Translations under genes and position numbers: made by a program
Shown here: piece by piece, positions 3,151 through 41,616 of the stretch
Numbering within the stretch: the first letter of the stretch is position 1
Layout: the number at the start of each line of letters is the position of its first letter
Source: Candidatus Altiarchaeota archaeon
GTDB lineage: Archaea > Altiarchaeota > Altiarchaeia > IMC4 > SCGC-AAA252-I15
Assembly (NCBI GenBank): GCA_043800255.1
Contig: JAZDNF010000008.1
Location: 32,001 to 96,000 of the forward strand
Reading direction: 5' to 3'
DNA: 64,000 nt
The notes under the pieces: model-generated
The model's database searches: none
What the model was told of the DNA's origin: nothing
Seen by the model: the letters and a program-made list of their open reading frames with translations, nothing else

Positions 3151-3307
3151 CGCCGAGGTTGGGATTTGAACCCAAGTGGCCACAAGGACCACGGACTAGC
3201 TGCCACCTTGTCTTGTTTTTTCTTTTTCGTGCACGTTTTTCTTTTTTTCTAAAAAAGAAAAAGGTGCTAGCAGGCCCGCGCGTTAGACCATACTCCGCCA
3301 CCTCGGC
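3151..3307 (-). tRNA. tRNA-Ser(GCT) with 70-nt intron at 37/38 (3198-3267)
   Basis: GCCGAGG/CCTCGGC acceptor, long variable arm, GGTTCAAATCC T-arm, perfect BHB (CTGC/GCAG helix). Confidence 0.95.
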
Positions 3308-3339
3308 ATTGTGTTATCGGGTTTTGTTATCCTCTTGGC

Positions 3340-3436
3340 GAGGTGGTGGGTCTGAGCCCTTGCAGGGCGAAGCTGACCGCCACCTCAGCATTTTATGGCG
3401 ATGTTAACGACCCTCAGGTCGCGACCACCTCGGCAT
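3340..3436 (-). repeat. Two partial copies of tRNA-Ser 5' end, each joined to hairpins
   Basis: CCGCCACCTCAGCATT (~3377-3392) and CCACCTCGGCAT (3425-3436) match the gene's 5' end and leader at ~3295-3310. Confidence 0.75.
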
Positions 3437-3442
3437 AAAAAA

Positions 3443-3619
3443 TTATTCTAGCTTCTCTGCCTCGTCGATGAGCATTATGGGTATGTCGTCTTCCACCCTG
3501 TATTTGAGTTTGCAGGCGTGGCATGTGAGGTAGTGCTCTTTCTTGTTGTTCACGTACTCGAGGTCGCCTTTGCATTTGGGGCATGCGAGTATGTCCAGTA
3601 GTTTTTTGTCTAATGCCAT
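3443..3619 (-). CDS. trm112: Trm112 family methyltransferase activator (58 aa, absent from ORF track)
   Basis: Manual translation MALDKKLLDILACPKCKGDL...CHAC...YRVEDDIPIMLIDEA. Confidence 0.9.
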   Translation of the reverse strand: MALDKKLLDILACPKCKGDLEYVNNKKEHYLTCHACKLKYRVEDDIPIMLIDEAEKLE

Positions 3620-3652
3620 TTTTGGTGTAATATTTTAGTTCAAGGGCTTATA

Positions 3653-4621
3653 TTAATCGCTTTTCCACATGCGGGGGTAGACGCCGGTTTCCATGAAAAC
3701 CCTTTTGGATTTGACTATTTCCCCTTTTTTGAGTTCCAGCATCTGTTTCGAGTCGGTAAGGGCTTTTCCGACTGATATGAGCTCCCCTTTGAGGGTGGTT
3801 ATCGCAACATGGTCTCCTGCTTTTATGCCGGATTCCAGCTTCGACACTCCCGGCGCTTTCAGGGTTGCGCCGTGGCATATGGAGTCAACGGCGCCGTCTT
3901 TGACCCAGATTTTTGGCATCCCCTTGAGGGCGTCTTCCACGTGTGTCAGGCGTTCAATAAGTTTGCGGCTGTCTCCCTGCTTGTGGTATTCGAAGGCGTC
4001 TCTCAGATCATGCAGTCTGATGCAGTCGTCCTCGGTTATCCATCCTACCTTAGTCCTCCTGAGTTCGAGCATGTGCGCTCCGACTCCGAGGACTGTGCCG
4101 ATGTCGTGGCAGAGTTTTCTGACGTATGTGCCTGCCTCGCAGTTCACCTTCAGGAGGACTTTTCTCCCGTCTTTTTCGAGGATGACGATTTTGTGGATTG
4201 TCCTGACTCTGAGCTCTCTTTTGACTGCTGACTTCAGGGGCGGGCGCTGGTATATGCCGCCTGTGAATTCTCTTAGCACGCCTTCCAGGTCTTTGTCAGG
4301 CACTTCCTTGTGCAGTTCCAGGATGCCTACGTACTCTTTGTTCAGGTTCAGGAAGGTCAGCACTCTGGTGGCATACTCTAGTCCTATGGGGAGCACTCCA
4401 GTAACGTTCGGGTCCAGTGTTCCTGAGTAGCCTGCCTTTTCGATGCCAAGCATCCTCTTCACCCACACTGTGACCTGGTGGGATGTGGGGCCGCTTGGCT
4501 TGTTGAGGTAGACGAAGCTCTTTTTCAGTCTTTCTTCGACTGTTCTAGAATCTGGCTCGCAGCCGAAATCTGGGTTCGTCTTCTCCTCGTCTTTTACGAG
4601 AATGTCCTTGGCGCCTTCCAT
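3653..4621 (-). CDS. cbf5: H/ACA RNA-guided pseudouridine synthase Cbf5
   Basis: KPSGPTSHQV, GTLDP catalytic Asp, QRPPLKSAVKR, AGTYVRKLC, PUA domain. Confidence 0.95.
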   Translation of the reverse strand: MEGAKDILVKDEEKTNPDFGCEPDSRTVEERLKKSFVYLNKPSGPTSHQVTVWVKRMLGIEKAGYSGTLDPNVTGVLPIGLEYATRVLTFLNLNKEYVGILELHKEVPDKDLEGVLREFTGGIYQRPPLKSAVKRELRVRTIHKIVILEKDGRKVLLKVNCEAGTYVRKLCHDIGTVLGVGAHMLELRRTKVGWITEDDCIRLHDLRDAFEYHKQGDSRKLIERLTHVEDALKGMPKIWVKDGAVDSICHGATLKAPGVSKLESGIKAGDHVAITTLKGELISVGKALTDSKQMLELKKGEIVKSKRVFMETGVYPRMWKSD

Positions 4622-4622
4622 T

Positions 4623-4859
4623 TCAGGGGAGGTCGGCTTTCTTCATCGCGTCTAACACTGTTTTACTGTCCGCGCCTTTCTTGATTTTCACTGTCGCGGG
4701 GAGGGGTTCGATGTGTTTGATGTTTACTTTGCCTCTTTTGACGTTCTCCCCTTCCACTATTACGGTGTTCTTGTCTGCGGTGTCTGCTATCACGCAGTAT
4801 TCGCCAGCGTCGTTTCCGCGCAGTTTGACGCAGACTCTTCCAACTTCTATCAAAGCCAT
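4623..4859 (-). CDS. rpl14e: 50S ribosomal protein L14e
   Basis: IEVGRVCVKLRG...VNIKHIEP; adjacent to cbf5 as in many archaea. Confidence 0.93.
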   Translation of the reverse strand: MALIEVGRVCVKLRGNDAGEYCVIADTADKNTVIVEGENVKRGKVNIKHIEPLPATVKIKKGADSKTVLDAMKKADLP

Positions 4860-4902
4860 TTTGAGATAAATGATAGGGTGTTCAGCCTTAAAAAGTAAAC
4901 GC

Positions 4903-6315
4903 CTATAGTGTGTCGAGGCAGTCGGGGTCTGCGGGCGGGCACACTGGATTCTGGCCTGGGCAGTTCTGGCATGGCAGGCTATTCCAGTCGACGCAGCAGC
5001 AGGTTTCCCCCTGGAACTCGTAGAAGGCGCTTGCGACGCAGCTTGTCTTGCAATTCTGGGTTATCTGCTGCAGCTTCTGTGAGGCCCAGTCCTTGCACTG
5101 CTGTTGCGTGTTTATCACCGGCGCTCCGAAGACTCCGGTGTTTATCCACTGGTATCCGTTCACGCCCTGGTCATCGCAGTACATCTGGCAGTTAGGATAG
5201 CACAGGCAGTCGCTCTCGCATCCCAGATATATGTCGATGTCCTCGCAGTCGAAATCTGATTCGCACTCCTCTCCTGGCTCCACAACATCGTTGCCGCATT
5301 CGTACTCGTAACAGTAATAGCAGTGGCTGCATGTGTCCCACTGTTTGCAGTATCCGACGTCAGGGTCGTTGCAGTATTTTATGCATTCGGTGTAATTCTT
5401 CAGCACCAGCGCGCCTCCCAATGTTGAGCAGTCTTTGTCCTTGCAGTAGTTGCATGGCGTGCTCTGGTACTGGGAGCATTCTTCACACTCCGCATCGCAG
5501 TTTCCGCCGCAGTTCACATCGTTGTAGAGGCTTCCGCCGCAGGTCACGGAAACTGTCGTGGTAGCCTGTACAGATGTCGTTGGCGTTGATGTGGTAGCTC
5601 CTCCCACGGTTGTCGGCGTCGAGGTCGTTGCTCCGGCAGTTGTTGTTGGTTGTGTCGAAGTTGTTGGGGTCGTGCCCGTCTGGCAGTAGGCTGTGCACTT
5701 GCAGGCTGATTCATCCCAGACGCAGTTCAGCACCGTCTGGCCTCTTGAAGTGCACTGGCTGTTGCAGTGGGCTGTGCAGTCGTCTTTGCCCCAGGCGCAC
5801 TTTTTCGTGCTCGAAACTGGGACTCCCTCATCGTCGGTGCACTGCCCGTTGAGGCATCTTTCAGCGCATGTTTCGACTATCTCGGTCTTTATGCTGCCCA
5901 TGCACTTCGAGTCTGCCGTTCCCGGCTTGCTGCAACGGTATGAGGTTACATCCTGGACTACCTTCTCCTGGTAGCATCTTAGCTGGCCCAGATTCGGGCC
6001 GCCGCAGTCAGCATTTATAGTGCATGTGAACTTTGTGCTCGTGGTAGTCTCAACGCTCGTTGTTGGTTCAGCAGTTGTCGTTGATTCTACAGTGCTGGCG
6101 ACGGTCGTCTCCTCTAAAGTGGTTGTCTTCTCGTCGTTGTCGCATATCGAGTTGTTATCACCGTCCAGGCAGCATTCTTTCCCGACCTGGATGTAGGGCA
6201 CGTTGCAGACAATTTCCGCCTGAGCGGGCGCCTTCTGGCTGGGGGAAGTGCAGCCAGCAGCAAGCATTACAGAGACTAGAAACAGGACTGTGATGATCTT
6301 TTCATTCAGCTTCAT
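4903..6315 (-). CDS. Cys-rich, Thr-rich secreted lipoprotein
   Basis: Signal peptide ending AAGC, CCLDxxxNxICD motif, Thr-rich linkers, many Cys. Confidence 0.8.
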   Translation of the reverse strand: MKLNEKIITVLFLVSVMLAAGCTSPSQKAPAQAEIVCNVPYIQVGKECCLDGDNNSICDNDEKTTTLEETTVASTVESTTTAEPTTSVETTTSTKFTCTINADCGGPNLGQLRCYQEKVVQDVTSYRCSKPGTADSKCMGSIKTEIVETCAERCLNGQCTDDEGVPVSSTKKCAWGKDDCTAHCNSQCTSRGQTVLNCVWDESACKCTAYCQTGTTPTTSTQPTTTAGATTSTPTTVGGATTSTPTTSVQATTTVSVTCGGSLYNDVNCGGNCDAECEECSQYQSTPCNYCKDKDCSTLGGALVLKNYTECIKYCNDPDVGYCKQWDTCSHCYYCYEYECGNDVVEPGEECESDFDCEDIDIYLGCESDCLCYPNCQMYCDDQGVNGYQWINTGVFGAPVINTQQQCKDWASQKLQQITQNCKTSCVASAFYEFQGETCCCVDWNSLPCQNCPGQNPVCPPADPDCLDTL

Positions 6316-6362
6316 CCAACTTCCCAGATAATTATCTGATAGAGTCTATAAAAATCCCCAAA

Positions 6363-7067
6363 TCAGTTGTGAACAGTAACCTTGTTCTCGTAAATCTCAT
6401 AAACTGTCTTATCCCCTCTGATTCCCCCCTTGAGAGTGTGATATCTTGTCACGTCGGCTCTGCCGTCGTTTTTCAGCGTGATGTTCGTGACATTGTCTCC
6501 TCGCGGCTCGCCTGCGACCGGCTTCTCGAAATCCTCATACGATACTTTGAATTCCCGCCCGGACAGTTCGTCTTTTGTGAATTTTATCATGTCTGTCGCA
6601 GTGTCCTTCTCGCCGATGCCGTTCCCCTTGACCAGGTAGACAATGGTGTCCTTTGCTTTCGCGAGCTTGAGCCATTCGTCCAGGAAGCCGCCGATGTCTA
6701 CAGTAGTGTGAGTGTGTGCCAAACCTATCAGCTTCTTCTCTTTATTGACAAGGCACACGTACATGCAGCTTGAGGCGAACTCAGACGCCAGGCTTTCGAG
6801 TTCGTTGGTTATGCGCCCGTATCCCTGGATTATGCTGCCTTCTGATGTGGGGCTTCCCTTCGCCTCCTCTAGGAACGCGTCGGTGAGCCTTCCGTCGCCT
6901 GTCCGGTATTTTTCCCTGCGGGCCAGCCTGAACGTCCAAGTCCCGACCGCGTCCTCAGCTAGTTCAGTCCTCGTCTTCCATCGTTCTCCGACCTGGCGGA
7001 TTTGCTCGACCTCGTCATATTCCCTTCTCTCGTGAGGGGGGTGGCCGGCCTCTCTGGTGACGCTCAT
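6363..7067 (-). CDS. Hypothetical protein with CheD-like deamidase motif
   Basis: SSCMYVCLVN...IGLAH resembles CheD GSC..V.L.D....GGLAH. Confidence 0.55.
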   Translation of the reverse strand: MSVTREAGHPPHERREYDEVEQIRQVGERWKTRTELAEDAVGTWTFRLARREKYRTGDGRLTDAFLEEAKGSPTSEGSIIQGYGRITNELESLASEFASSCMYVCLVNKEKKLIGLAHTHTTVDIGGFLDEWLKLAKAKDTIVYLVKGNGIGEKDTATDMIKFTKDELSGREFKVSYEDFEKPVAGEPRGDNVTNITLKNDGRADVTRYHTLKGGIRGDKTVYEIYENKVTVHN

Positions 7068-7102
7068 AGTATATTACAATACGCTGCCGGCAGATTAATA
7101 GC

Positions 7103-7756
7103 TCAGAGGGTTGAGAAATCTTTCCCGTGTTTTTGGAGGAATTTTTTCAGATTTTTTTGGGGGATCTTGTGAGGTTTCCCTATCAGCTTAGCTCCAACGT
7201 AGACTTTCGCCATCTTCTCAACGAGTTCTGCCATCTTCACGGTATGTTCGACGGTGCGACCGCAGACTAGGGCGCCGTGGTTCGCCAGGAGCGTCCCGTT
7301 CCTGTTCCCAAGAGCCTTCACAGCCTTTGCCCCTATTTTTTCGGTGTTGGCTTCTGCGTATTCTGACACGTTGACTTCTCCGCCTAAGAAGATTGCCATC
7401 TCTTCCAGGAGTACGGGTATCTTTTCCCTGGCTGCTGACAGCATCGTGGCGTACGGCGAGTGCGTGTGTATGACACACTTTGCTTTAGGCTTCGCCCTGT
7501 AGACTGCAGCATGCAATCGATACTCTGATGAGGGTTTCCTGCCTTTGCTGACCTGTGTTCCGTCGAATCTTATGCGTACTATGTCTTCTGCAATCAGCTT
7601 TCCATAGTCGTTGAACGTTGGCGTTATGTAGAGTTCCTCCCTGTCAGGGACTCTGACACTCACATTCCCTTCACCGGTCTCAACCAGTCCCCTCTCGTGT
7701 ATCGCCTTAGCAGCCTTGAGAACCTCTCCCCTGAGCTTCTTCTCTTCTGAGTCCAT
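7103..7756 (-). CDS. Class II aldolase/adducin family protein (fuculose-1-P aldolase-like)
   Basis: GNVSVR, PSSEYRLH, HTHSPYAT, LLANHG. Confidence 0.92.
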   Translation of the reverse strand: MDSEEKKLRGEVLKAAKAIHERGLVETGEGNVSVRVPDREELYITPTFNDYGKLIAEDIVRIRFDGTQVSKGRKPSSEYRLHAAVYRAKPKAKCVIHTHSPYATMLSAAREKIPVLLEEMAIFLGGEVNVSEYAEANTEKIGAKAVKALGNRNGTLLANHGALVCGRTVEHTVKMAELVEKMAKVYVGAKLIGKPHKIPQKNLKKFLQKHGKDFSTL

Positions 7757-7892
7757 CTCCTCTGGAATATTATTAACCGAATTCTATTAAAGATTATCTA
7801 GGGACAGGAGAGAAGCCAGCTTATACGCTTACAGTGGCTGATTTCCCGGTTAGTTGGTTTTTAATCGGCAGGCCAGAATCTTATAATAGGAC

Positions 7893-8882: not shown

Positions 8883-9139
8883 AAAGAACTAACACGCAGC
8901 TTCTGAGATGATTTAGATTCCATATAGAATCACCTCAGCTTGGCTATATGAACCTAAAACGAAGAAGTGATTTGTTTTTATTCTCGTTCTAATACATAAC
9001 TGAGGGGCTGATATGGCAACTAAAAACAGGGTATGCGGGATACATACAAGAGTGTAATGGAGCTTGTCAGAGACGCTTTAACAAAACCAACTCCTGAGGA
9101 ATAACATCCTAGATATACACTCCAGCCTCTTGTCCGAAA

Positions 9140-9667: not shown

Positions 9668-9794
9668 AACGTTTTAAAGTTTGGGGCCAGTGACTTATTG
9701 GAGTCTGAAATCTAGCTATTATTGTGAAACAACCGCGTAAGAAGAAGTTAGGTGTAGGATTTTTACCTTCGTTTTTAATACATAAGAGATGGGA

Positions 9795-9965
9795 TGGGCC
9801 TGCGGAGATTTCTTAACCGCGGGGGCTCCCGCCCCCTCAGTTTCAAGTTCTTCCTGAACCCCCGAAACGAATTGCGAGGTCTCTCGACCTCGCGAATGCA
9901 TTATCACGCTCAAGGGGACTGAGCGAAGCGAAGTCGCCGCCGCATGTAAACTGGGCGTGACAGTT
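9795..9965. repeat. Hairpin cassette bounded by 17-bp direct repeat of tRNA-Ile 3' end
   Basis: TGGGCCTGCGGAGATTT at 9795-9811 and 9966-9982; interior is a series of hairpins. Confidence 0.8.
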
Positions 9966-10128
9966 TGGGCCTGCGGAGATTTGAACTCCGGACCTCTCGA
10001 TTTCAGAAGCGACGCGTAATTCGCGTCCTGCACCTCCCGTCTTTTTTCTTTGGGGGTGAAGCACCTTTCTTTTCTAAAGAAAGGGGCTCTATCAGTCGAG
10101 TGCTCTAACCAGTCTGAGCCACAGGCCC
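9966..10128 (-). tRNA. tRNA-Ile(GAT) with 88-nt intron at 37/38 (10002-10089)
   Basis: GGGCCTG/CAGGCCC acceptor, CTCGA/TCGAG anticodon stem, GTTCAAATC; BHB with one U.U mismatch. Confidence 0.95.
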
Positions 10129-10173
10129 TTGTAAGCAAAAGGTGAGTTAATCTTAGTGATTTAATACTAAAAT

Positions 10174-10821: not shown

Positions 10822-10823
10822 GG

Positions 10824-31259: not shown

Positions 31260-31444
31260 TGCCGAAGGCGGGACTCGAACCCGCGACCTCCAGATAACTC
31301 AGCGTTATCGTGAAATCTTCCCTAGCCTTTGGCTACGGTGCCCGGCCCCAAAATTTTTTCTTTGGGGGTGAAGCACCTTTCTTTTCATAAAAGAAAGGGG
31401 CTCGCTTATGAGTCTGGCACTCTGCGCTACTGAGCTACTTCGGC
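31260..31444 (-). tRNA. tRNA-Met(CAT), elongator type, with 111-nt intron at 37/38 (31296-31406)
   Basis: GCCGAAG/CTTCGGC acceptor, CCAGA/TCTGG stem, GGTTCGAGTCC, perfect BHB; D-loop lacks GG. Confidence 0.9.
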
Positions 31445-31470: not shown

Positions 31471-31749
31471 GTACTGTCTTCGGCTCCGGCCTCGACAGTA
31501 CTGAATAATATTATCTTGACGTATTATATTTCTTTTCCATCAACGCTTTTCTTTCCTAAAGAAAAGGGTTGCTGGATTCAATATTATGGGCGTTAGAGTA
31601 TATTAATTTTCTTTTTCGCCAACGCAAACGAGACTTTGTCTCGTTGCGCACGAAGACGCTAGTCTTCGTTGCGTTTTTCTTTTCCCTAAGGAGCGAAGCT
31701 CCTTGGGCGCAGGGAACGAAGTTCCCTCGCGTCTAAAAGAAAAAGGTTG
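31471..31749. repeat. Cluster of T-rich/A-rich hairpin elements with nested double hairpins upstream of tRNA-Met
   Basis: Simple copy at 31541-31571; interrupted copy at 31620-31749; hairpin at 31471-31501. Confidence 0.8.
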
Positions 31750-31788
31750 TTAGGGGTTAAATAGGGGTCGGTTGTAATAGTCTCTTGT

Positions 31789-33576
31789 ATGGTGAAGCCC
31801 AATCTCCTGTTTGAGGTCTCCTATGAGGTTTGTAACAAGGTTGGCGGCATTTACGCTCTGCTGAGGTCTAAGGCCCCGTATGTGCTGAGAGAGTACGGAG
31901 ACGATTATGTTATGGTGGGGCCGTACGTTCAGAACAATGCTGCCGTTGAATTTGAGGAGCAGATGACTCCTGAAGAGCTTTCTGATGTTGTTGATGACCT
32001 CCTCAAGCTGGGGATAAAATGCCACTATGGGAGGTGGCAGATGGACGGGAAGCCTAAGGCGATACTGGTAGACCACAGCGGCTACATGCATGAGGCTGAT
32101 GATATTAAGGCCGGCTTGTGGGAGTACGCTCAGGTCGACTCGTTGAATGCTGACAACTGGTTCACTGACCCACTGGTGTGGTCTACTACAGTTGGGATGC
32201 TGTTGGAGAGGATCGTCAAAAAGAGGAAATGCAAATGCAGGTGCATCGCCCACTTCCACGAGTGGCTTACTGGTGGGGCGCTGCTGAAGCTCAAACAGGA
32301 CAAGTCGGAGATTTCAACGGTGTTCACGACGCATGCTACGGTATTGGGGCGGGCGCTGGCTGAAGCAGGGGAGCCGCTGTACAGTATAATAGGGAGGGGA
32401 GAGGACGGCCAGAAGAACATCGACCTAGCAAAGTGGTATAATGTGCTCCCGAAGCATACGATGGAGGTCGCATGCGCAAAACACGCTGACGTTTTCACCA
32501 CCGTGAGCGAGGTGACGGCGAAGGAGGCTGCGTATTTTTTAGACCGGACGCCTGACCATCTGCTGTTGAATGGCATAGACTTGTACAGGTACCCGCCATT
32601 GGACGAGCTGGTCGTACAGAGGAGGTCCAAGAGGAGGCAGATGAGGGACTTTCTCACGTCATACTTCAGCAGATACTATCACATGGATTTCTACAACATC
32701 AGGAGCATGTTCATCTCTGGGAGATATGAATTCAGGAACAAGGGGATAGACCTGTTCATAGACTCCCTCGGCATGCTCAACAGGAGGATGAAGAAGGAAA
32801 AGACAGGGAAGAATGTCGTAGCATTCCTCTGGATTCCGTCCAACGTCAAAGGGGAGGACTTCCAAGTATTGAAGAACAAGTCCCTCTATGAGGAGATGAA
32901 AGACCACATCGAGGAACTGTGGCCTGACATAGAGGACAGGATGACCCATGTGCTGACCGACGGCGACATGCCTAAGAGCGTCTTAGACGACGAGGACAAG
33001 CAGAAGCTGAGAAAGCTGGCTCAACATTTCGTCGAAAAGAGGGGTGAGACGCCGCCGCTGTGCGCCTTCGAGCTAGCCTATCCGAAGGAGCAGGACACTA
33101 TAATGCAGGCCCTCTGGAAGAACGAACTGTTGAACAGGGAGGAGGACAAGGTCAAAGTGATATACTACCCATCCTATCTGTCAACGACCGACAGGCTCAT
33201 ATCGTTGGACTATGGGGACGCAACGCTCACCTGTGATGTCGGAGTCTTCCCATCCTACTATGAGCCTTGGGGTTACACGCCGCTTGAGACCGCGGCGCAG
33301 GGGAGCCTGGCGATAACGACAGACTGCGCAGGCTTCGGCAAGTTCGTCGAAGGCAAGGGGAAGGGCATATACGTTCTGAAGAGGTGTAATAGAACGTGGG
33401 AGAACATGGTCAAAGACCTCTCGGAGAAGCTGTTCGAGATAGTCACTCTCTCGAGGGAGGAGATGGTGGAGAGGCGCGCTAACGCGCGGGAGCTGGCTGC
33501 ACTGGCAGACTGGAAGGAACTGGTTAAAGGATACTTCAAAGCATATGAGACGCTGGCAGGCCAAAAAGTCAGATGA
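31789..33576 (+). CDS. Glycogen synthase, GT3 family
   Basis: FEVSYEVCNKVGGIY, HFHEW, FTTHAT.LGR, GRYEFRNKG, PSYYEPWGYTP.E. Confidence 0.93.
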   Translation: MVKPNLLFEVSYEVCNKVGGIYALLRSKAPYVLREYGDDYVMVGPYVQNNAAVEFEEQMTPEELSDVVDDLLKLGIKCHYGRWQMDGKPKAILVDHSGYMHEADDIKAGLWEYAQVDSLNADNWFTDPLVWSTTVGMLLERIVKKRKCKCRCIAHFHEWLTGGALLKLKQDKSEISTVFTTHATVLGRALAEAGEPLYSIIGRGEDGQKNIDLAKWYNVLPKHTMEVACAKHADVFTTVSEVTAKEAAYFLDRTPDHLLLNGIDLYRYPPLDELVVQRRSKRRQMRDFLTSYFSRYYHMDFYNIRSMFISGRYEFRNKGIDLFIDSLGMLNRRMKKEKTGKNVVAFLWIPSNVKGEDFQVLKNKSLYEEMKDHIEELWPDIEDRMTHVLTDGDMPKSVLDDEDKQKLRKLAQHFVEKRGETPPLCAFELAYPKEQDTIMQALWKNELLNREEDKVKVIYYPSYLSTTDRLISLDYGDATLTCDVGVFPSYYEPWGYTPLETAAQGSLAITTDCAGFGKFVEGKGKGIYVLKRCNRTWENMVKDLSEKLFEIVTLSREEMVERRANARELAALADWKELVKGYFKAYETLAGQKVR

Positions 33577-33577
33577 A

Positions 33578-35452
33578 CTATTTCTCATATGGAGGGCGCC
33601 TGCCAAGGGCATCCTCCAGGTAGGCTCTCAACGGCTCAGCAACACTCCACGCCTGCGATATGCAGCCTCTCGGAAGGTGAGGCGCATCCCCGTCGAATAT
33701 CTCATTGATCGAGCCTAAGGCTCCAACCGATAGGGCACGGTCGAAGAAATCCTCTAAGAGTTTCCGGGCCCTCCTGGAAGCGGCTTTTCCGCCGTACCTG
33801 ACGGATGCTCTCACATAGGGCCCGAGAAGCCAGGGCCAGACTGTCCCATTATGGTATGCCTCTTCCCTCTGCCGGACGCCTCCAGAGTATGAGCCACAAT
33901 AGCTGGAATCATCAGAGGATAGCGTCCTCAACCCGAAAGGAGTCAGGAGTCGTTTCTCAACAGCGGAGAGTATGGATTTAGCTCTCGACTTGTCAACGCA
34001 GGTGTAATCGAGGGACAATGCCATCAGCTGGTTAGGCCTGAACGAGTCAACGCCGATGCAGTCCATAAGATGACTGCCATTCCAGTACTCTCTCAGAAAA
34101 GTTGACTCGAAATCTCCTATAATCTCTGCAGTTGGGAGGGTATTGTCAAGTTGGGCCAGAGTCGAGAATTTCTCAAACGCTTTGAGCGCATTATACCAGA
34201 GAGCCTGGACTTCGACAGCATCATCCCGTCTGAGAGTGTCCATCCAGGTTCCACTGTCATGCATTATGAGGCCGTTTTCGGATATGCTGCTGTAGTATTG
34301 CATGAGGTCAGACAGCCGAGCCCAGTGTTTCCTCAATAGTTCCCTCCCCATATCAGGGCCTGCGTATTTTATGTACTGCATGATGCTGTCAAAAAGCCAC
34401 AAGCTTGAATCATAGTCCCTGTAGACGGGAGTTCCGGACTCGGATTCGGTCATAATCCTGCCGTCATGAACTCTGCCGAGAAAATGCTCTAATATGAGCC
34501 TGGCATCATCTATCCTGCCCCTCACGAGCGTCAGACCAGGCAAGCTTATCATCGCATCCCTTCCCCACTCCCCAAACCAGTGGTAGCCTGCGACCACCGT
34601 CATCCTGCTGCCAGCATCTATGACAAAAGAGTCGGCAGCGGAGCCGAGAACGTCTAACACACTCTCCTTGGTTCTCTTCCCAGGCTGGCCGTATGCCAGC
34701 TTACTCTCCAGACCATCCAAGCCAACAGCAATGACATAGGAGCATGTACTGTCCGGGCTGACATCAGCAGAGTAAGTGAAAGGTATGAGAGACTCGTCGA
34801 CTGCAGGATAGCCTCTCCCCGCCTCCTGCCGGTAGTAGATGTTCCTCATCCAAAGGTTGAGGGAGTTGAAGTCACCCTCAGACGCCCGGAACATGAGCTT
34901 ATGCCCTCCAACCGAGACTGATGCGTTCATCCCATCAGCATTCACTTCAAAATTTTTCTCGCCCTCACGCAAAAGCTCATGGATGCTGCGGAAGCTGATG
35001 TGGGGGGAGACGACATGCCTTATGCGCTCCCCAGACCTGTTACTTAGAGCGTAAGAGACCATGATCTCGTTCTTTCCTGAAGCGATTTTTACCCTCTTAT
35101 CCAGCCTGAAGCCGTCACCCTCATACGTGAAGATGACGTAATCCCTGCCTTTCTCGAATCCGACGAGCTTTTCAAGGCCGGGAGAGACAATACTGCCGCC
35201 GAATTCGACGCAATGGAGTTCGACTCTCTGTGAGCCGACGTATAATGCATCCTCCATCTTCTGCAGGCACACCATCCTCCTCAAGTTCTCAAGCGACGAG
35301 ACCAGCAGCCCATGATACTTCCGCGTGTTCAGCTCCATAACGGTCGAAGAAGAGTAGCCGCCTATGCCGTTGGAAAGAAGCCACTCCAGCTCGGAAGCCG
35401 CTGGAAAACCAAGAGCATTGGGTTTGACCCGCATTCCACAGTCCACGGACAA
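33578..35452 (-). CDS. Amylo-alpha-1,6-glucosidase (glycogen debranching enzyme)
   Basis: EWLLSNGIGGY, TRKYHGLL, AGYHWFGEWGRD, RPNQ, YHNGTVWPWL, QAWSVAE. Confidence 0.93.
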   Translation of the reverse strand: MSVDCGMRVKPNALGFPAASELEWLLSNGIGGYSSSTVMELNTRKYHGLLVSSLENLRRMVCLQKMEDALYVGSQRVELHCVEFGGSIVSPGLEKLVGFEKGRDYVIFTYEGDGFRLDKRVKIASGKNEIMVSYALSNRSGERIRHVVSPHISFRSIHELLREGEKNFEVNADGMNASVSVGGHKLMFRASEGDFNSLNLWMRNIYYRQEAGRGYPAVDESLIPFTYSADVSPDSTCSYVIAVGLDGLESKLAYGQPGKRTKESVLDVLGSAADSFVIDAGSRMTVVAGYHWFGEWGRDAMISLPGLTLVRGRIDDARLILEHFLGRVHDGRIMTESESGTPVYRDYDSSLWLFDSIMQYIKYAGPDMGRELLRKHWARLSDLMQYYSSISENGLIMHDSGTWMDTLRRDDAVEVQALWYNALKAFEKFSTLAQLDNTLPTAEIIGDFESTFLREYWNGSHLMDCIGVDSFRPNQLMALSLDYTCVDKSRAKSILSAVEKRLLTPFGLRTLSSDDSSYCGSYSGGVRQREEAYHNGTVWPWLLGPYVRASVRYGGKAASRRARKLLEDFFDRALSVGALGSINEIFDGDAPHLPRGCISQAWSVAEPLRAYLEDALGRRPPYEK

Positions 35453-35508
35453 ATATTAAACTTTTATACCTATAATGACATAATAGGAAAATAGACCGGC
35501 CTGACAAG

Positions 35509-36657
35509 ATGATACCAAAGGACGATAAGACGCTGAAGCTCCTTCTGATCGGGCTCGCATCCGCTGCCATAGTACTGAGGAAAATGCCGCTGGCCGCTCT
35601 CTCGCTCGCCATGCTCGGCATACTGTTACTTTCAGAGCGGGCATCCCATCCCATCACAGTGAGAAAGGTGAAGTACAACAAAGACACCGGCAGATTCGAA
35701 GTCTTCGTCGAGAACAAGGGATCAAAGCCTCTGACCGTGAACTATGCGATACGCTCAGTCCAGCCGGAGTATGCTGAAAGCGTCGGCCTCACAGATGAGG
35801 ATGGAATCGAGTTCCTGAGAGGCAGCAGCGGAGGCTACAGGGAGAACTTCTCGCTGATTTCCGCGGAATTCCCAGGCAAGACTCTTGGAGCATGCCAGGC
35901 GGAGCTGATCGAAGCTGCTAGGATGGCACCAGAGGACGGCTGGGACCCAGCGCTCCAGAAGACCGTCCGAATCACGGCAGCATACACCGGAGAGGACATG
36001 GACGCTGTTAGGAAGCTTGAACTCACGGTCCCCGTCGAAGTGTCAGAGAACCACCCTTACCTGAGGAAGGTCGGGGCTGAGAGAGAGTTCGTACTATCGG
36101 ATGGATATGGTGTGGCAGGCAGGGCAGCATCATTGGAGGCCCTGGCAGACCACGTCAGAGGGAAGTCCAGCCATGTTTTGGCACACGTCAGGAACGAGGA
36201 CATACAGCGCTGGGTGATGAACGTCGTGGGCGACAGCGAACTGTCAGACAGGATTTCAAAGATTACCAGCCTGCCTGACGAGCAAATATTGGACACGCTC
36301 GAGGAAACCCTCAGGGAGAGGATTCTTGAACTGAGATACGGTCATCTCGTGGAGAAGCACCCGCTCCTGGCTGATGTTGAGCCATGGCATGCCTTTCACA
36401 TGAAATCAGACCACGAGAATATCATAGGAGTCTGCAGGAGCCTGTCCTCCCTTTTGGAGCTTATTAGAGCATCACCAGAAGAGTGCGTCGGATTCCACCT
36501 CAGAGGGGATAATGACTTCTCAAAGTGGGTGGCGAACACAGTAGGCGACCTGAAACTGTCCGATAGGATAGACGTAATAGACGCCTCAGACATGAGGTAT
36601 GCGAAGCTTAAGCTGATAAGCCTGCTAGAGGAGAGGATACGGGAGCTGGAAGGCTGA
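35509..36657 (+). CDS. Membrane-anchored protein with two DUF5752-like repeats
   Basis: N-terminal TM; repeated H....ND(F/I)..WV...VGD..LSDRI units. Confidence 0.65.
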   Translation: MIPKDDKTLKLLLIGLASAAIVLRKMPLAALSLAMLGILLLSERASHPITVRKVKYNKDTGRFEVFVENKGSKPLTVNYAIRSVQPEYAESVGLTDEDGIEFLRGSSGGYRENFSLISAEFPGKTLGACQAELIEAARMAPEDGWDPALQKTVRITAAYTGEDMDAVRKLELTVPVEVSENHPYLRKVGAEREFVLSDGYGVAGRAASLEALADHVRGKSSHVLAHVRNEDIQRWVMNVVGDSELSDRISKITSLPDEQILDTLEETLRERILELRYGHLVEKHPLLADVEPWHAFHMKSDHENIIGVCRSLSSLLELIRASPEECVGFHLRGDNDFSKWVANTVGDLKLSDRIDVIDASDMRYAKLKLISLLEERIRELEG

Positions 36658-36698
36658 CTTCTGATTTTTAAAAGCATTTGAACAAATAGGGTATTCCA

Positions 36699-37952
36699 AT
36701 GACTGCAGTCTGCTTTTACTTTCAGGTGCACCAGCCGTTCAGGACCACCTGGTTCTGGCCTGACAACGGCATAGACTATAAGGGAAAGCTGGAGGACCTG
36801 TACTTTGACACCAAACTCAATGAGTTCACCTTCAGGAAGGTCGCCGGCAAATGCTACCACAGGGCCAACGACATAATACTGTCGCAGATCGACAGGTTCA
36901 AGGGAGGTAAGAGAAAGTTCAAGGTCAGCTTCTCGCTGTCAGGCACGTTCCTCGACCAGTGCGAACGCTGGGATAAGGACCTGATGGAAAAATTCAGGCA
37001 GATGGCAGACTCCGGGTGCGTTGAATTCCTCGGCGAAACCTACTACCACTCGCTTGCAGGCTTGTACGAGGACAAGGAGGAGTTCACAGACCAGGTCGAA
37101 CAGCACAGGCAGGCGATGAAGGACCTCCTAGGCATGAAGCCGGAAGTCTTCAGGAACACGGAATTACTGTACCATGACGGCATCGGCGAAACGATAGAGA
37201 GGATGGGCTTCAAGGCCACCATGACCGAGGGGACGGAGCGCATACTTGAAGGCTGGAAGAGCCCCAACTACGTGTACAGGAGGAGGGGGGGAGACATCAG
37301 GATACTATTAAGGAACTATAAGCTGTCAGACGACGTCGGATACAGGTTCTCGTCCAAGTGGTGGGAGGAGTATCCGCTGACGGCTGACAAATATTCCGCA
37401 TGGCTCTCATCATCGCCGGGCGACACGATAAACATCTTCATGGACTATGAGACCTTCGGAGAGCACCAGTGGGAGGACACCGGCATATTCTGGTTTTTAG
37501 GGGCAATACCGCAGGAAGTACTCAAGTGGGAGAACCTCGAGTTCTCAACACCGTCTGAAGTTGTCAGAAAGCACGCCCCGAGAGGGGAGATAACAGTCCC
37601 CTACTATGAGACGGTCTCCTGGGCTGACATAGAACGCGACCCCAGCGCATGGTTGGGCAACCACATGCAACATCTGAACTTCAGCCAGATGAAGAGGCTC
37701 GGAAAGCTGGTCAAAGAGTCCGGCAACGAGGAGTTCATCAGAATATGGAAGTACCTGCAGACCGGCGACCACTTCTATTACATGTGCACCAAGTGGCTGG
37801 CAGACGGCGACGTGCACAAGTACTTCAGCCACCACGGCAACCCCTACGACGCAGGCATAAACTATCTGGCCATACTCTCAGACCTTAAGGAGAGGGTTCT
37901 GAGATATATGCTCGAAAACGGCGGAAAGGCTAAGCCGAGAAGAAAAAATTAG
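36699..37952 (+). CDS. GH57 alpha-amylase
   Basis: FQVHQP, ETYYHSL, FRNTEL, LSDD.GYRFS, MDYETFGEH, DHFYYM. Confidence 0.93.
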   Translation: MTAVCFYFQVHQPFRTTWFWPDNGIDYKGKLEDLYFDTKLNEFTFRKVAGKCYHRANDIILSQIDRFKGGKRKFKVSFSLSGTFLDQCERWDKDLMEKFRQMADSGCVEFLGETYYHSLAGLYEDKEEFTDQVEQHRQAMKDLLGMKPEVFRNTELLYHDGIGETIERMGFKATMTEGTERILEGWKSPNYVYRRRGGDIRILLRNYKLSDDVGYRFSSKWWEEYPLTADKYSAWLSSSPGDTINIFMDYETFGEHQWEDTGIFWFLGAIPQEVLKWENLEFSTPSEVVRKHAPRGEITVPYYETVSWADIERDPSAWLGNHMQHLNFSQMKRLGKLVKESGNEEFIRIWKYLQTGDHFYYMCTKWLADGDVHKYFSHHGNPYDAGINYLAILSDLKERVLRYMLENGGKAKPRRKN

Positions 37953-39124
37953 GCGCTCATCCCATCATACAGGCTGACGTATTTTTTCGCGATATGAGAC
38001 CATGTGAAGTCCCGGACGCTTCTTTTCGCGTTATCGCCCATCCTCCTTATGCTCCCGCCGGTGGGGTCGCCCAGCAGGTATTTAATGCCCCATGCGATGC
38101 TCGACGGGTGCTGGTTTACTTTTATCCCGTTGTAGAAGTTCTTGACAATCTCCCTCGGGCCTCCGATGTCGGTCGCGACAACAGGCTTGGAGGAAGCCCA
38201 CGCCTCCAATGTTATGATCCCGAAGGGCTCGTTCCTGCTGGGTATGCACACCATATCGCATGATTTGAAGAGTTCGTGCTTCTCCTCCTCGCTGACATAT
38301 CCTAGGGTGTGCACTTTGCCGTCCACTCCCAGCCAGTGGGAGCGACCGTTTATGTGGTTTATCATGCTGTCTCCCCCTCCTGCGAAGACGAACTGGGCAT
38401 CATGTCTGAATGATAGAACATCGGGGACTGCCTCAAGCAGCAGGTCAGGGCCCTTCTGATGGCACATCCTCCCCATGAACAGCACGACAGGATCCAGAGG
38501 CCATATCCCATACCGTTCCTTCACCCTGCCGGGGTCGATTTTGCCCTCGAATTCGGACGCGTTTATGCCGTTGTAGTTGACTTCTATCTTATCCCCCGGT
38601 ATCTGGTATTCGCGCATGAGCTCGTCTTTCATAGAGTATGAGACTGTTGTGACAAGCTTGGACAGGTATCCGCCAAGCCACTCGCGGTGCCTCACCCTAC
38701 CAGAGAACCAGTTATCCTGGTAGCTGTTCCCGTTTCTCCCGAGTTCGGTTGAATGGCAGGTCCACACGAAATCATAGCCTTTGTGGTTTTTCAGGTTGGC
38801 GAGGGCGTTCACAACATGCCAGTCGTGGCCGTGGAGTACGTCGAATTTGCCGTATCCGCTTTCTACGTGATGGAAGCAGGATACCATGCTGTCGCACATG
38901 TGGTCCATGTATTCTATGAAGTCCTCGCAGCCTGGGCTCACGCACCTGTGCTCATAGTAATCGTTTATCATCTCATGCTCAGGCTGCCCGTGCCCCATCC
39001 TCGTGAACACGTGAACCTCATGCCCCTGTTTGGCTAGGGCCTGCGCTAGGTTGGATACCACCTCAGCCACACCCCCCACTGGGACAGAATGCTTAGTCTC
39101 CCAGGAGAAGAAGCCAATCCTCAC
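37949..39124 (-). CDS. GT4 glycosyltransferase (glycogen synthase-like)
   Basis: FSWE...GG, HGHDW, HSTE.GR, QKGPD, EPFGI..LEAW. Confidence 0.9.
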   Translation of the reverse strand: MRIGFFSWETKHSVPVGGVAEVVSNLAQALAKQGHEVHVFTRMGHGQPEHEMINDYYEHRCVSPGCEDFIEYMDHMCDSMVSCFHHVESGYGKFDVLHGHDWHVVNALANLKNHKGYDFVWTCHSTELGRNGNSYQDNWFSGRVRHREWLGGYLSKLVTTVSYSMKDELMREYQIPGDKIEVNYNGINASEFEGKIDPGRVKERYGIWPLDPVVLFMGRMCHQKGPDLLLEAVPDVLSFRHDAQFVFAGGGDSMINHINGRSHWLGVDGKVHTLGYVSEEEKHELFKSCDMVCIPSRNEPFGIITLEAWASSKPVVATDIGGPREIVKNFYNGIKVNQHPSSIAWGIKYLLGDPTGGSIRRMGDNAKRSVRDFTWSHIAKKYVSLYDGMSA

Positions 39125-39136
39125 GTCATCACTTCC

Positions 39137-39340
39137 TTAGTTTGTCTTCCTAACGTATGTCTTCGCCTTGCTCCTGTTGATCTCTATCTTGCCTTCGCGG
39201 GCAAGCCATCCTAACGCCATGTAGAAGATGTCATCATTCTTCTTGATCTTCTTCTTCACAGCGCCCACTTCAACGGGAGTGTCTATGCCGCAAAAATAGA
39301 TTTCGCCAGCGGCAAAGCCGACATCAGGTTTTATGTCCAT
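39137..39340 (-). CDS. Small winged-helix protein (DUF2582-like)
   Basis: VGFAAGEI ... MALGWLAREGKI; GGAGG SD. Confidence 0.85.
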   Translation of the reverse strand: MDIKPDVGFAAGEIYFCGIDTPVEVGAVKKKIKKNDDIFYMALGWLAREGKIEINRSKAKTYVRKTN

Positions 39341-39490
39341 CTACCCAACCTCCTAGAGCATGCCAGAACACGCTGACAGTGCCAATAATTTATCAAACGG
39401 AGGGCTTAAAAACCCTTCGGAATCAGACCCTACCAGGATATTTATACAATCAAACCAATATGGTAAACTCAAAAAAAACCTCAAAAAAAA

Positions 39491-39615
39491 CCCGCCTTAG
39501 CGTAGCCTGGTTTAACGCGGCCGGCTGTAGTTTGGATCAAGAGGTAGAAGCCTCTCAAAGGCCGTAAAAAATAGCAGGCACCGGCAGACCCCCGGTTCAA
39601 ATCCGGGAGGCGGGA
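39491..39615 (+). tRNA. tRNA-Tyr(GTA) with 49-nt intron at 37/38 (39531-39579)
   Basis: C1-G72 acceptor CCCGCCT/AGGCGGG, GCCGG/CCGGC stem, GGTTCAAATCC; relaxed BHB. Confidence 0.95.
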
Positions 39616-39708
39616 AAATTCTTCTTTTTGATGTATTGGCGGGGCTTTATGCCCCGCGATTCGTTATGAGGTTATAGTGCTAACTGCCTTATGCAAGAAA
39701 CCCTATGG

Positions 39709-39912
39709 TTATGTGAGTCCTCCGTTGTTTCCGCCTAGCAGTTCTAGGTACTTGGCGGAGCATTCCACGAGTTTCTGCCTGAGTAGGGGTGCTGACTGCC
39801 AGAAGATAATGCTAACAGTCACCAATGACGCTCCGACTGGACTTAACACGTTCACAAAATCAGAAATAAAAAAGATATAGTCGTCTGCCTGCCTCCGAAG
39901 TGGGTTTTTCAT
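39709..39912 (-). CDS. Small hypothetical membrane protein
   Basis: ATGA overlap with upstream AbrB-like gene; hydrophobic core. Confidence 0.4.
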   Translation of the reverse strand: MKNPLRRQADDYIFFISDFVNVLSPVGASLVTVSIIFWQSAPLLRQKLVECSAKYLELLGGNNGGLT

Positions 39913-40073
39913 TTTCTTTTTTTCCTGGATTCTCCGATTACTGTCAACTCGAGGTTACCTCTCTCGTTGAAATCCCAATCCAGCTCATCCCCCTTCGCAA
40001 GCCCGAGCCGCTTCACCTTCTCCTGCGGAATGCTCACGAAAAATCTTTTTTGGCTTTCCTGAAGCCGCACCAT
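39909..40073 (-). CDS. AbrB/MazE/SpoVT-type DNA-binding protein
   Basis: FFVSIPQEKVKRLGLAKGDELDW; start placed at MVRLQ. Confidence 0.75.
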   Translation of the reverse strand: MVRLQESQKRFFVSIPQEKVKRLGLAKGDELDWDFNERGNLELTVIGESRKKRK

Positions 40074-40278
40074 CGTGCTAACATTATACAAAATATAATA
40101 AAAGATTAATGTTTTCGTATATAAAAGCTTACTTTGGCTCAATCAGACAGCCAGAGCGAGAGGCCGGAGACGTCAAAGCCCAACCCAATCGCATAAAACG
40201 AGGATTTAATGCGGTTCTTGCTTCCGAAGAGCTGACTTTTTACGTTTATAATGGTTACTACCAGATAGGTAAGTTCAC

Positions 40279-41358
40279 ATGGACACAAATGCAGCGGCAC
40301 CCATCGTCTTGAAAGCAGACGCGCCGAGGAGGGCGTTCTGCGTGGCCATGCAGAAGGACAACAAGCCAGTGAGAGTCGAGGGCGAATCCTCTGCCGATTT
40401 CACAACCCTTCTAGAGGAGTCTGATGTAGCGTGGGTCAACTTTGTCGTAGACGACATTAACGCCGATGGAGAGGCTATCGCAACCTCTCTAGGATTCAGC
40501 CAGAATCTGGTTTCCACCCTCCTGACAGGGTTCAGGTCCAACTATGAGGACAGGGACGTCGAGCTGGGGATTATGATACCCGCAGTCGACACCGAGAGAC
40601 TAGAGGTCACCATACACCCTCTGGTAATACTGATCAAAAGAGGCCTTATTCTGACAATCCACGGGAAGAACATAAGCCGGCTGGTTAAGTTCTCAAGATA
40701 CGCGAACACCTTCATGAAGAAGATAAAACAGAACATCCCCTGGCAGGACAAGATGACCATACTCCTGTGGAGGATCATGGACGAGAACAATTCCAAGAAT
40801 TTCGACCACCTCAGGGAAATCGAAGAGCAGGCTGATGAGTTGGCGAAGGACATGATGAACCCGATGACGCCGAGAGACAAGCTCGGTCCGGACATCTACA
40901 GGATGAAACATGCCCTCATAATATACCTCGACTCCCTCTGGGCGACGCTTGACGTAATCCACACCCTAAGATACGGCGACGCTGAAGTCCTGTCAGACAA
41001 CAGTAAGATACTTGAGAGGATATCAGTACTCGCGTCTGACGTTACCAGCCAGATATCAATAAGCGAGCACATGTCAGAGGTGCTGGCATCTGGCCTGGAA
41101 GTCTTACAAACCATATACAACAACCAGCTGCAGATGCTGAACAACAGGCTAGCCTTACTGGCAACATGGCTGGCAATCATCGGCACGGCAGTCCTAGTGC
41201 CCAACACCCTGGCAACGATATTCGGAATCCCAACAATATCAGAACACCTAGACTGGCGCCTCACAATACTGATACTAATCGCCTCAACGCTGCTGTCAGC
41301 TTGGATAGCATACTGGGCCATAAGAGCAAAAGGATTAATACCCAAAAGCGTGGAATAG
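40279..41358 (+). CDS. CorA family divalent cation transporter (divergent signature)
   Basis: Long helical soluble domain, two C-terminal TMs; FGIP instead of GMN. Confidence 0.8.
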   Translation: MDTNAAAPIVLKADAPRRAFCVAMQKDNKPVRVEGESSADFTTLLEESDVAWVNFVVDDINADGEAIATSLGFSQNLVSTLLTGFRSNYEDRDVELGIMIPAVDTERLEVTIHPLVILIKRGLILTIHGKNISRLVKFSRYANTFMKKIKQNIPWQDKMTILLWRIMDENNSKNFDHLREIEEQADELAKDMMNPMTPRDKLGPDIYRMKHALIIYLDSLWATLDVIHTLRYGDAEVLSDNSKILERISVLASDVTSQISISEHMSEVLASGLEVLQTIYNNQLQMLNNRLALLATWLAIIGTAVLVPNTLATIFGIPTISEHLDWRLTILILIASTLLSAWIAYWAIRAKGLIPKSVE

Positions 41359-41426
41359 ATCCTTTCACCAGTAACCGCCCGCCAACCCCCATTTTTATTC
41401 CCCAAAGTTTAATATTAACCTTCGCT

Positions 41427-41470
41427 GCCCCGGTAGTGTCAGCAGCCTTTTAAGAAAAGGCTGGCGAAAA
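41427..41470 (+). repeat. 13-nt copy of tRNA-Asp 5' end fused to CAGCCTTTT..AAAAGGCTG hairpin element
   Basis: GCCCCGGTAGTGT at 41427-41439 equals 41491-41503; element at 41443-41470. Confidence 0.8.
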
Positions 41471-41490
41471 GAGGATAGAACACTAAAATT

Positions 41491-41616
41491 GCCCCGGTAG
41501 TGTAGCGGACTATCATGTAAGCCTGTCGCAACCCTTTTCCGCCTACGGCGCAAAAGCGTTGACGGAAAAAAGATTGCAGTCAGCTTACGACTCGGGTTCG
41601 AATCCCGACCGGGGCG
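41491..41616 (+). tRNA. tRNA-Asp(GTC) with 53-nt intron at 37/38 (41529-41581)
   Basis: GCCCCGG/CCGGGGC acceptor, TAAGC/GCTTA stem, GGTTCGAATCC, BHB (CTGT/GCAG). Confidence 0.95.

Follow-up and report, generated by a model that had tools for sequence, protein, structure and literature searches.

The subject of this report is a fold-back repeat that is found at the edges of tRNA exons in an archaeal genome of 17 contigs and 1.75 Mb, and within it in the window, the whole stretch of 64,000 nucleotides (nt) that was analysed and that corresponds to C11:32001-96000. The intron of a tRNA-Ser gene, the intron of a tRNA-Asp gene and a copy upstream of a tRNA-Met gene, all three in the window, are copies of this one repeat, of which the genome holds at least 33. 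Judged by its sequence, the element is the source of most of the intron length, as it occupies 45 nt in the Asp intron (53 nt) and 51 nt in the Ser intron (70 nt), or 73-85%, in agreement with a preliminary description of the window which held that most of each intron was derived from an element. It probably seeds the introns as well.

That description had linked the two introns with each other and the Asp intron with a "free" intergenic copy. The Asp intron and the copy at 31527-31571 (-) do share both arms, and the strings that had been quoted are present in the sequence. When the two arms in common are searched for as a pattern, with any centre allowed, the window gives two exact matches, at 31533-31571 (-) and 41529-41569 (+), and none of 100 dinucleotide-preserving shuffles gives any, so the likeness is not a matter of chance. 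The centres differ, as had been noted; they are the hairpin loop, which in the Asp intron contains a nested GC-rich mini-hairpin. The intergenic copy cannot be called free, as it lies in the leader or promoter region of tRNA-Met, 83 nt upstream of the gene and beside a long-form copy of the element. Neither can the two be read as donor and recipient; the match holds at the level of the family, and a copy in the leader of tRNA-Glu (C5:18460-18506) has the same nested-hairpin layout as the Asp intron. The Ser intron belongs to the same family, as subtype A, and its match to the covariance model R1 is given in Table 1. R1 was built from 46 copies, of which two, the Ser intron and the upstream-of-Met copy, come from the window, and the values of these two training rows are not independent; the Asp intron was not included. 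Element and intron start at the same base in tRNA-Asp and tRNA-Ser, and in other introns the offset is 0-2 nt. No Rfam family matched the element at E<=1 in Rfam scans at the tRNA loci.

The element is 45-60 nt long. From 5' to 3' it starts with a foot of 4 nt and an unpaired C, followed by a pyrimidine arm, a loop and a purine arm complementary to the pyrimidine arm; then come a C, the foot's complement, a linker of 2 nt with a G, and a purine tail. In 11 of 11 aligned seed copies of the genome this tail mirrors the purine arm, with the long A-run facing the linker in both and with agreement in G positions and in total length. This mirror-image third arm comes in addition to the arms and tail described before. 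The copy upstream of tRNA-Met has the pyrimidine arm CTTTTCTTT, its partner AAAGAAAAG and the mirror tail GAAAAGAAA; the arms of the Asp intron are CTTTT, AAAAG and GAAAA, and the small GC hairpin is nested within the loop. Two subtypes can be told apart by what follows the junction C, namely T5 in subtype A (Ser intron) and CT4 in subtype B (Asp intron and upstream-of-Met copy). In a two-hairpin form, type C, the mirror tract sits in the loop of the second hairpin; it is found in the introns of Val-GAC, Glu, Arg-TCG, Met and others. A long form, present in the introns of Thr-GGT and Gly-GCC, at 31611-31749 and upstream of tRNA-Phe, carries a conserved pair of GC-rich hairpins inside the foot complement. 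This module of about 50 nt, seen in the window at 31623-31672 (-), at C5:16194-16380, at C8:278800-278991 and upstream of tRNA-Phe on C13, has an identical insertion point within the foot complement in four element copies, and resembles a second repeat nested in the first.

The first loop usually has 2-6 nt, and the second connector (C, the 4-nt foot complement, 2 nt and G) is about 7-8 nt long and pairs with the 5' foot. Where the loop reads cgt...acg, the bases 3' of the tail are Watson-Crick complementary to it, and such a pairing of tail extension and loop would close a pseudoknot. The unpaired C/C junction and the conserved G of the third strand would fit a base triple at the junction. 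A TATA box at the centre of the hairpin was also considered and fails as a general feature, as many loops are GGG or AGG.

The relation among the three arms was examined in 113 distinct copies from other archaea, collected with a search pattern in which only nine core bases of each purine arm were fixed, so that foot, pyrimidine arm and all positions outside the core could vary. An exactly complementary pyrimidine core was found in 98 of the 113, and 90 of these 98 also had a fully complementary foot. The 5' junction base was C in 96 of the 98, and the G that would pair there occurred only once; the C/C mismatch which had been remarked in the stem of the two window copies is thus a feature of the family. 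Of 222 helix positions beyond the core, 196 were mirrored in the tail, compared with 99.5 +/- 7.4 when tails were permuted (maximum 124 in 2000 permutations) and with 122 when the tail was read as a direct repeat, and a longer helix went with a longer tail. The foot helix was paired throughout (100%) in 46 rows with four pair types at the outer position, and 56 cells had changed on both sides as against 16.1 +/- 3.1 in shuffles. The three arms thus covary across copies, which argues for selection that maintains, on the sense strand, a relation among three strands. A mirror relation is meaningless for proteins that bind duplex DNA and for copying by a polymerase; it is what an antiparallel purine third strand needs, with A on A-T and G on G-C.

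At E<=0.05 the genome has 33 full-length matches to R1. A scan by regular expression found 20 copies with a mirror run of at least 5 (runs of 5-14), and a single one in the reversed genome. Most copies are tied to tRNA genes, as 27 of the 33 lie inside or within 150 nt of one, and 25 of these 27 are in sense orientation. Sixteen, all sense, are within tRNA introns that carry at least 11 isotype labels in ARAGORN; five are offset from the 3' end of a tRNA by -4 to +2 nt and four are 43-114 nt upstream of a tRNA, again all sense; two are downstream of a tRNA and antisense. The genes of tRNA-Glu and tRNA-Thr(TGT) each have a copy in the leader, the intron and the trailer. Among the six copies located elsewhere, three flank a small RNA (sRNA) of C/D-box-like type on C13 and one is at the 5' end of an S-adenosylhomocysteine-hydrolase-like (SAHH-like) gene on C16. 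The sRNA, at C13:11520-11860 (+), shows C, D', C' and D boxes and a terminal stem by eye and has elements on both sides; duplicates of its 5' 28 nt and of its 3' 14 nt each lie on the far side of an element. Since most of the long introns in this genome consist of a single defined element, that element is a concrete candidate for the intron body, one which can be traced in population data.

A degenerate 26-nt pattern covering the purine arm, linker and tail was scanned in a collection with one genome per species, most of it bacterial, and gave at least 114 loci; among the matches listed, all 80 of 80 record titles were archaeal. Those listed include ANME-1/Methanophagales, Syntrophoarchaeum, Methanomicrobiales, Methanosarcinales, Thermoplasmatales and Altiarchaeota, as well as Micrarchaeota, Aenigmatarchaeota, Iainarchaeum/Diapherotrites and Nanoarchaeia. 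In viral contigs, 0 matches were found. With R1 at E<=1e-4, 51 of 61 genomes of the host phylum, Altiarchaeota, had matches, with 1-30 copies each, and R1 also found 24 copies in a Micrarchaeota genome and seven in an ANME-1 genome. In other archaea, 51 of 120 pattern matches were in or within 200 nt of a tRNA called by ARAGORN, a lower bound since the program misses many interrupted genes, and 69 had no called tRNA near; 19 of the 120 were within 60 nt downstream of a tRNA in sense, and 15 were inside a tRNA in sense. The mirror rule is kept, base by base, from Altiarchaeota to DPANN lineages and ANME-1. Comparative evidence of this sort for a natural structure of triplex type is rare.

The content of the intron site differs among relatives. 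At position 37/38 of tRNA-Asp, the gene was seen to be intron-less in two relatives (G012 and G021) and is probably so in three more (G022, G026 and G029), as judged from contiguous exon matches; the same element is present in G010, and other variants of the hairpin family are found in G001, G015 and G027. The tRNA-Ser(GCT) of G003 has the two-hairpin form as against subtype A here. The long-form locus was compared with groundwater contigs of one study whose flanks are about 95% identical. In one of them (run X1) 31624-31753 is swapped for 31 nt that read as a simple hairpin, and in a second contig 31596-31748 is swapped for 26 unrelated bases. Contigs of runs X2 and X3 which skip 41529-41581 exactly were considered as an intron-less allele of tRNA-Asp; they were taken instead as the intron-less tRNA-Asp of another organism, because the fit extends over no more than 35-36 nt to either side and the end of tRNA-Tyr is joined directly to the start of tRNA-Asp. 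In these groundwater contigs of a relative, the end of tRNA-Tyr and the start of the intron-less tRNA-Asp are 1-3 nt apart, and the CorA-like gene which separates both tRNAs here (39615-41490) is absent.

The preliminary description had taken its observations as a link between a repeat family and tRNA intron gain or expansion. The link itself is supported, as 16 introns hold a member and the content of the site varies in relatives, while gain, loss and expansion cannot be told apart. Both comparisons that had been put forward as checks agree with it: the similarity exceeds that of the shuffles (0 of 100), and the 37/38 content of relatives differs, with no case in which relatives lacking the family had the same introns.

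Several copies are flanked by duplications. An exact flanking repeat of at least 13 nt was found at seven of 22 copies of this genome, all seven outside introns, compared with 18 of 2000 random sites, and a repeat of at least 14 nt at 10 of 92 copies in other archaea, compared with 27 of 3000 random sites; in eight of these 10 the upstream repeat copy ends 0-4 nt from the foot. The layout is always the same, with a copy of a gene end, the element, a spacer and the intact gene, and the sequence between duplicate and gene consists only of the element and a short spacer (45-130 nt, no gene). Examples of the duplicated ends are positions -1 to 13 of tRNA-Asp, positions 1-18 of tRNA-Glu, 28 nt of the C/D-like sRNA and, in antisense, the last 16 nt of tRNA-Arg. 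The arrangement in the tRNA-Asp leader, a 5'-end duplicate and an element, recurs in G021, a genome of another family. In three genomes (this one at C16:37831-37876 (-), G001 and G017; loci L044 and L074) the first 24-69 nt of the SAHH-like gene are duplicated across an element, and the upstream fragment retains the start codon and a TATA-like box. Because the SAHH-like duplicates differ mostly at synonymous sites, they suggest two alleles joined by recombination rather than a duplication in place.

Tandem arrangements were found as well. On C13 two copies of identical sequence are separated by 127 nt, and in G019 (L137, C185:2050-3050) a 132-nt unit is repeated 6.4 times, in which an AT-rich spacer is joined to a tRNA 5' fragment of about 35 nt and to an element. 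No complete tRNA was called by ARAGORN in the kilobase of this array, which could represent orphan 5' halves. A classic transposon with target-site duplication was rejected as the origin of the flanking repeats, as these are not of constant length and are present at a minority of copies only. Remnants of large elements integrated at attachment (att) sites are unlikely, as in seven of seven cases there is only the element and a short spacer, and none of the viral contigs matched.

The features of the window are collected in Table 1. The tRNA-Ser and tRNA-Asp genes named in the preliminary description are real by their Rfam scores, and the intron coordinates agree with those given by ARAGORN. 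Both inserts interrupt the genes at position 37/38 according to ARAGORN, and the Rfam tRNA matches span them. When the bases are paired by hand, a putative bulge-helix-bulge (BHB) of the 3-4-3 type can be drawn for each intron; the central helix would be CUGU/GCAG with the bulges CGC and UCA in tRNA-Asp, and CUGC/GCAG with the bulges UAG and CUA in tRNA-Ser. The minimum free energy (MFE) fold of the Asp pre-tRNA picks another pairing, in which the pyrimidine arm pairs with the tail and no BHB is formed, and was discarded as evidence. ARAGORN in its default mode called one tRNA in the window and Rfam at the gathering threshold two, and intron mode and local E-value scans were needed. With introns allowed, ARAGORN called 36 tRNA genes in the genome, the majority with introns of 40-113 nt; it misses tRNAs in this genome, and the placement counts given above are approximate. 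Isotype calls for the intron-bearing genes are unreliable: the tRNA at 9966-10128 (-) is labelled Ser(gga), and its anticodon loop reading suggests Ile(GAT), while C5:9242-9427 is labelled "Stop(tta)".

Table 1. tRNA genes, introns and element copies in the window (positions are those of the window; R1 is the covariance model of the family).
Feature	Position	Strand	Basis
Small trailer form, short hairpin and ATCAAA tail, immediately 3' of tRNA-Ser	3124-3150	-	Read from sequence
tRNA-Ser(GCT)	3151-3307	-	Rfam tRNA 38.9 bits; ARAGORN intron mode
tRNA-Ser(GCT) intron, 70 nt, at canonical 37/38	3198-3267	-	ARAGORN intron mode
Subtype A element in Ser intron; foot GCAC, linker and G = ACG, mirror length 12	3217-3267	-	R1 68.5 bits, E=2.4e-12 (training row)
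Type C element in 88-nt intron of tRNA 9966-10128	10043-10089	-	R1 E=3.4e-4
tRNA-Met(CAT), intron of about 111-113 nt	31260-31444	-	Rfam 52.6 bits
Type C element in tRNA-Met intron	31355-31403	-	R1 E=4.2e-5
Complete subtype B element, 83 nt upstream of tRNA-Met, same strand	31527-31571	-	R1 E=2.9e-11 (training row)
Long-form element; standard foot, arms and tail; GC-rich hairpin pairs in loop and inside foot complement	31611-31749	-	Sequence; R1 partial matches 31606-31646 and 31672-31746
Duplicate of tRNA-Asp -1 to 13, 3 nt ahead of the small hairpin element	41425-41438	+	14-nt exact direct repeat
Small hairpin and purine tail in tRNA-Asp leader, weak family member	41443-41475	+	R1 E=0.35 only
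tRNA-Asp(GTC)	41491-41616	+	Rfam 46.5 bits; ARAGORN
tRNA-Asp intron, 53 nt, at 37/38	41529-41581	+	ARAGORN intron mode
Subtype B element in Asp intron; nested GC mini-hairpin in loop	41529-41573	+	R1 E=1.6e-5 (not a training row)

The long-form copy is in tandem with the upstream-of-Met copy and lies about 40 nt from the start codon of a divergent glycogen synthase. This synthase, of eukaryote type (PF05693), belongs to a glycogen gene cluster at 31789-39124 together with a debranching enzyme (GDE_N/GDE_C), a GH57 enzyme and a GT4 glycosyltransferase. Hairpins of the small trailer class found behind tRNA-Ser also occur after the 3' ends of other tRNAs. The leader of tRNA-Ser, at 3309-3440 (-) (loci L133, L134 and L135), has two additional sense copies and one antisense copy of the first 10-13 nt of the tRNA. 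These could form a long hairpin, in which no triplex element is involved. The leader unit is present in relatives, where it ends in GATAACACAAT right before the tRNA, and it is tandemly repeated in G012.

The explanation that we favour, and which we consider probable by a modest measure, is that the element is a repeat at the level of DNA which recombines or moves, is tolerated where RNA processing removes it, and builds the bodies of introns. The sense strand would fold as a hairpin with a third strand, either as RNA or as the displaced non-template DNA of heavily transcribed genes; the complementary strand might form a triplex of the U-A-U type, but it would seldom be the transcript. Through recombination between copies the repeat would spread or be exchanged, and it would persist where the splicing endonuclease, RNase P or 3' processing strips it from the product. 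Directly 3' of a 5' exon it forms the intron body, where a few flanking bases would provide the bulge-helix-bulge splice signal, 3' of a tRNA end it forms a trailer, and leaders are a further site. If a copy in an intron crossed over with one in the leader or trailer of another allele, the result would be a scar of the kind observed, made of a gene fragment, the element, a spacer and the whole gene, and exchange between copies would also leave tandem arrays and move intron bodies.

Several observations weigh against this explanation. The strict sense orientation fits a role in RNA as well as a role in non-template-strand DNA, and the near-identical sequence across phyla could mean a conserved function or a protein partner rather than mobility. 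No transposase, integrase or donor was found, and the viral contigs were without matches. The flanking duplications occur in a minority of copies and range from 14 to about 69 nt, unlike those of classic transposition. Some tRNA leaders hold sense and antisense copies of the tRNA 5' end without an element, and part of the duplication signal may be a separate feature of leaders. In tRNA-Ser the bases of the foot can also pair with the 3' end of the intron, in the inner helix of the BHB, and the element and the splice fold compete for them. Finally, the sequences do not establish the direction of change, that is, gain versus loss.

Alternatively, the element may be a functional RNA module of pre-tRNAs, maintained by selection and inherited mainly vertically, which acts at the 3' edges of exons as a scaffold or protein site for splicing, end processing or the stability of circular introns, the likeness among copies reflecting a shared function. 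The sense orientation of 25 of the 27 tRNA-linked copies and the start of the element 0-2 nt from the 5' splice site, or near the tRNA 3' end, would be expected of such a module, as would the strong conservation of foot, junction C, linker and G across phyla. Three foot pairs are G-T, a wobble that is compatible on the sense strand only, and in some copies the extension of the tail is complementary to the loop, giving a pseudoknot. However, copies are also found antisense to tRNAs, at the 5' end of a protein gene and beside the C/D-box-like sRNA, orthologous tRNAs do without the element, and the flanking duplications and tandem arrays are events at the level of DNA. The mirror rule moreover fits the purine motif, and in work by Semerad and Maher from 1994 such triplexes reportedly form in DNA with Mg2+ but poorly in RNA, where the motif is unfavourable. 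We regard the RNA module as an account to be taken seriously, yet an unlikely one. Much the same doubt attaches to a bolder proposal, which is tentative on our part: that the element is a sequence-programmed triple-helix pseudoknot on the sense strand that marks the 3' edges of RNA-gene segments across many archaeal phyla and is the vehicle of BHB intron gain, swap and loss, with recombination among intron, leader and trailer copies moving intron bodies from one tRNA gene to another and shedding orphan units of a 5' fragment and an element. If true, long tRNA introns would share their origin with tRNA gene fragments, and perhaps with split tRNA genes.

It was also considered that the element could be transcription punctuation, with a T-run hairpin acting as terminator in either direction and a purine tract resembling a transcription factor B recognition element (BRE) or TATA box beside small RNA genes, and that the intron copies are by-products. 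Pyrimidine arms with runs of T4 to T6 do occur right 3' of tRNA ends, TATA-like AT-rich boxes follow the tail in several extragenic copies, and the centre of the SAHH hairpin lies about -34 to -24 from the start codon, as counted by hand. A terminator inside 16 tRNA genes would be harmful, however, and neither termination nor promotion explains a mirror tail that covaries base by base; the conserved C/C junction has no explanation either, and the frequent GGG and AGG loops are not TATA-like. This makes punctuation, on balance, improbable. The RNA module and punctuation are not mutually exclusive with the DNA-repeat reading. Chance likeness of low-complexity purine and pyrimidine runs has a negligible probability. 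The arms are simple, (GAAA)n-like and partly self-mirroring, but this explanation is refuted by the controls, as the shared arms were found in 0 of 100 shuffles, the reversed genome gave one copy as against 20, and the permutation and direct-repeat controls do not reproduce the mirror signal; nor would chance always turn the asymmetric long A-run towards the linker in both purine arms.

Short, structured and dispersed repeats whose copy number varies between relatives are well known in the form of MITEs (miniature inverted-repeat transposable elements) and of small palindromic repeats of the REP/RPE type. The element described here has no terminal inverted repeats and no target duplication of fixed length, its palindrome is internal, and its mirror third arm is without counterpart in MITEs and REP-type elements. 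It may also bear some resemblance to integron attC-like and IS200-type hairpins of single-stranded DNA.

For the arrival of introns in archaeal tRNA genes, a 2014 review describes the mechanism as unknown (PMC4090602), and a 2026 preprint on Asgard archaea reports tests of copying, mobile elements and reverse transcription and states that intron arrival "remains open". In Thermoproteales an intron "transposition" is reported (Fujishima et al. 2010); two reviews describe similar introns in different isotypes of one genome, with a mechanism that is given as unknown and presumed to work at the level of DNA (PMC4033280, PMC4090602). Like those families, the element is shared across isotypes, with 16 introns and at least 11 ARAGORN isotype labels. 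In contrast, the host belongs to Altiarchaeota and not to Thermoproteales, and the shared unit is a defined structured element which is also found in leaders, in trailers and at non-tRNA sites, and across phyla. For Caldiarchaeum, a model has been put forward in which an integrating mobile element disrupts tRNA genes (Sugahara et al. 2012, PMC3293823). It shares with the present case a tRNA 5' fragment upstream of an intact, intron-bearing gene and a link of intron gain to DNA recombination; in Caldiarchaeum 1.8 kb encoding a recombinase separate fragment and gene (PMC3293823), where the present genome has 45-130 nt, made up of the element and a spacer, and no gene.

The closest likeness is to the class II intrastrand triplex motifs of bacteria (PIT, BoxC and TMECO). 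Among the papers listed in literature searches on archaeal tRNA introns and triplexes, on intrastrand triplex repeats and on Altiarchaeal tRNA introns, none describing the family was found; supplements such as the ITxF tables of Holder et al. 2015, which include archaeal genomes, and those of the Asgard preprint could already list such motifs. According to Holder et al. (2015, PMC4666352), who cite Hoyne et al. 2000, the class II order is a 5' pyrimidine domain, a purine domain and a reverse-Hoogsteen purine domain, and this strand order is common to all clear copies here. A mirrored third domain with T-A-A and C-G-G triads over at least six positions is likewise seen here at the level of sequence, and both kinds of motif are dispersed short repeats in non-coding DNA. 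Local rearrangement is linked to the bacterial motifs in that paper (PMC4666352) and to the archaeal family here, and the favoured reading of a DNA-level repeat agrees with the association between bacterial triplex motifs and genomic instability drawn there. The archaeal family differs in that it is A/T-rich with T-A-A triads, whereas the bacterial class II motifs are G/C-rich, and in that it adds a 4-bp foot helix and a conserved C/C-plus-G junction, which are absent from them. Its second connector is about 7-8 nt long, compared with the loops of 1-6 nt given for the ITxF search (PMC4666352), and it is tied to tRNA exon edges and introns, while the main text of the same paper makes no mention of tRNA. 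What is new is the combination, a foot-bearing, A/T-rich repeat of triplex type which occurs across archaeal phyla, sits at tRNA exon edges and makes up the bulk of introns.

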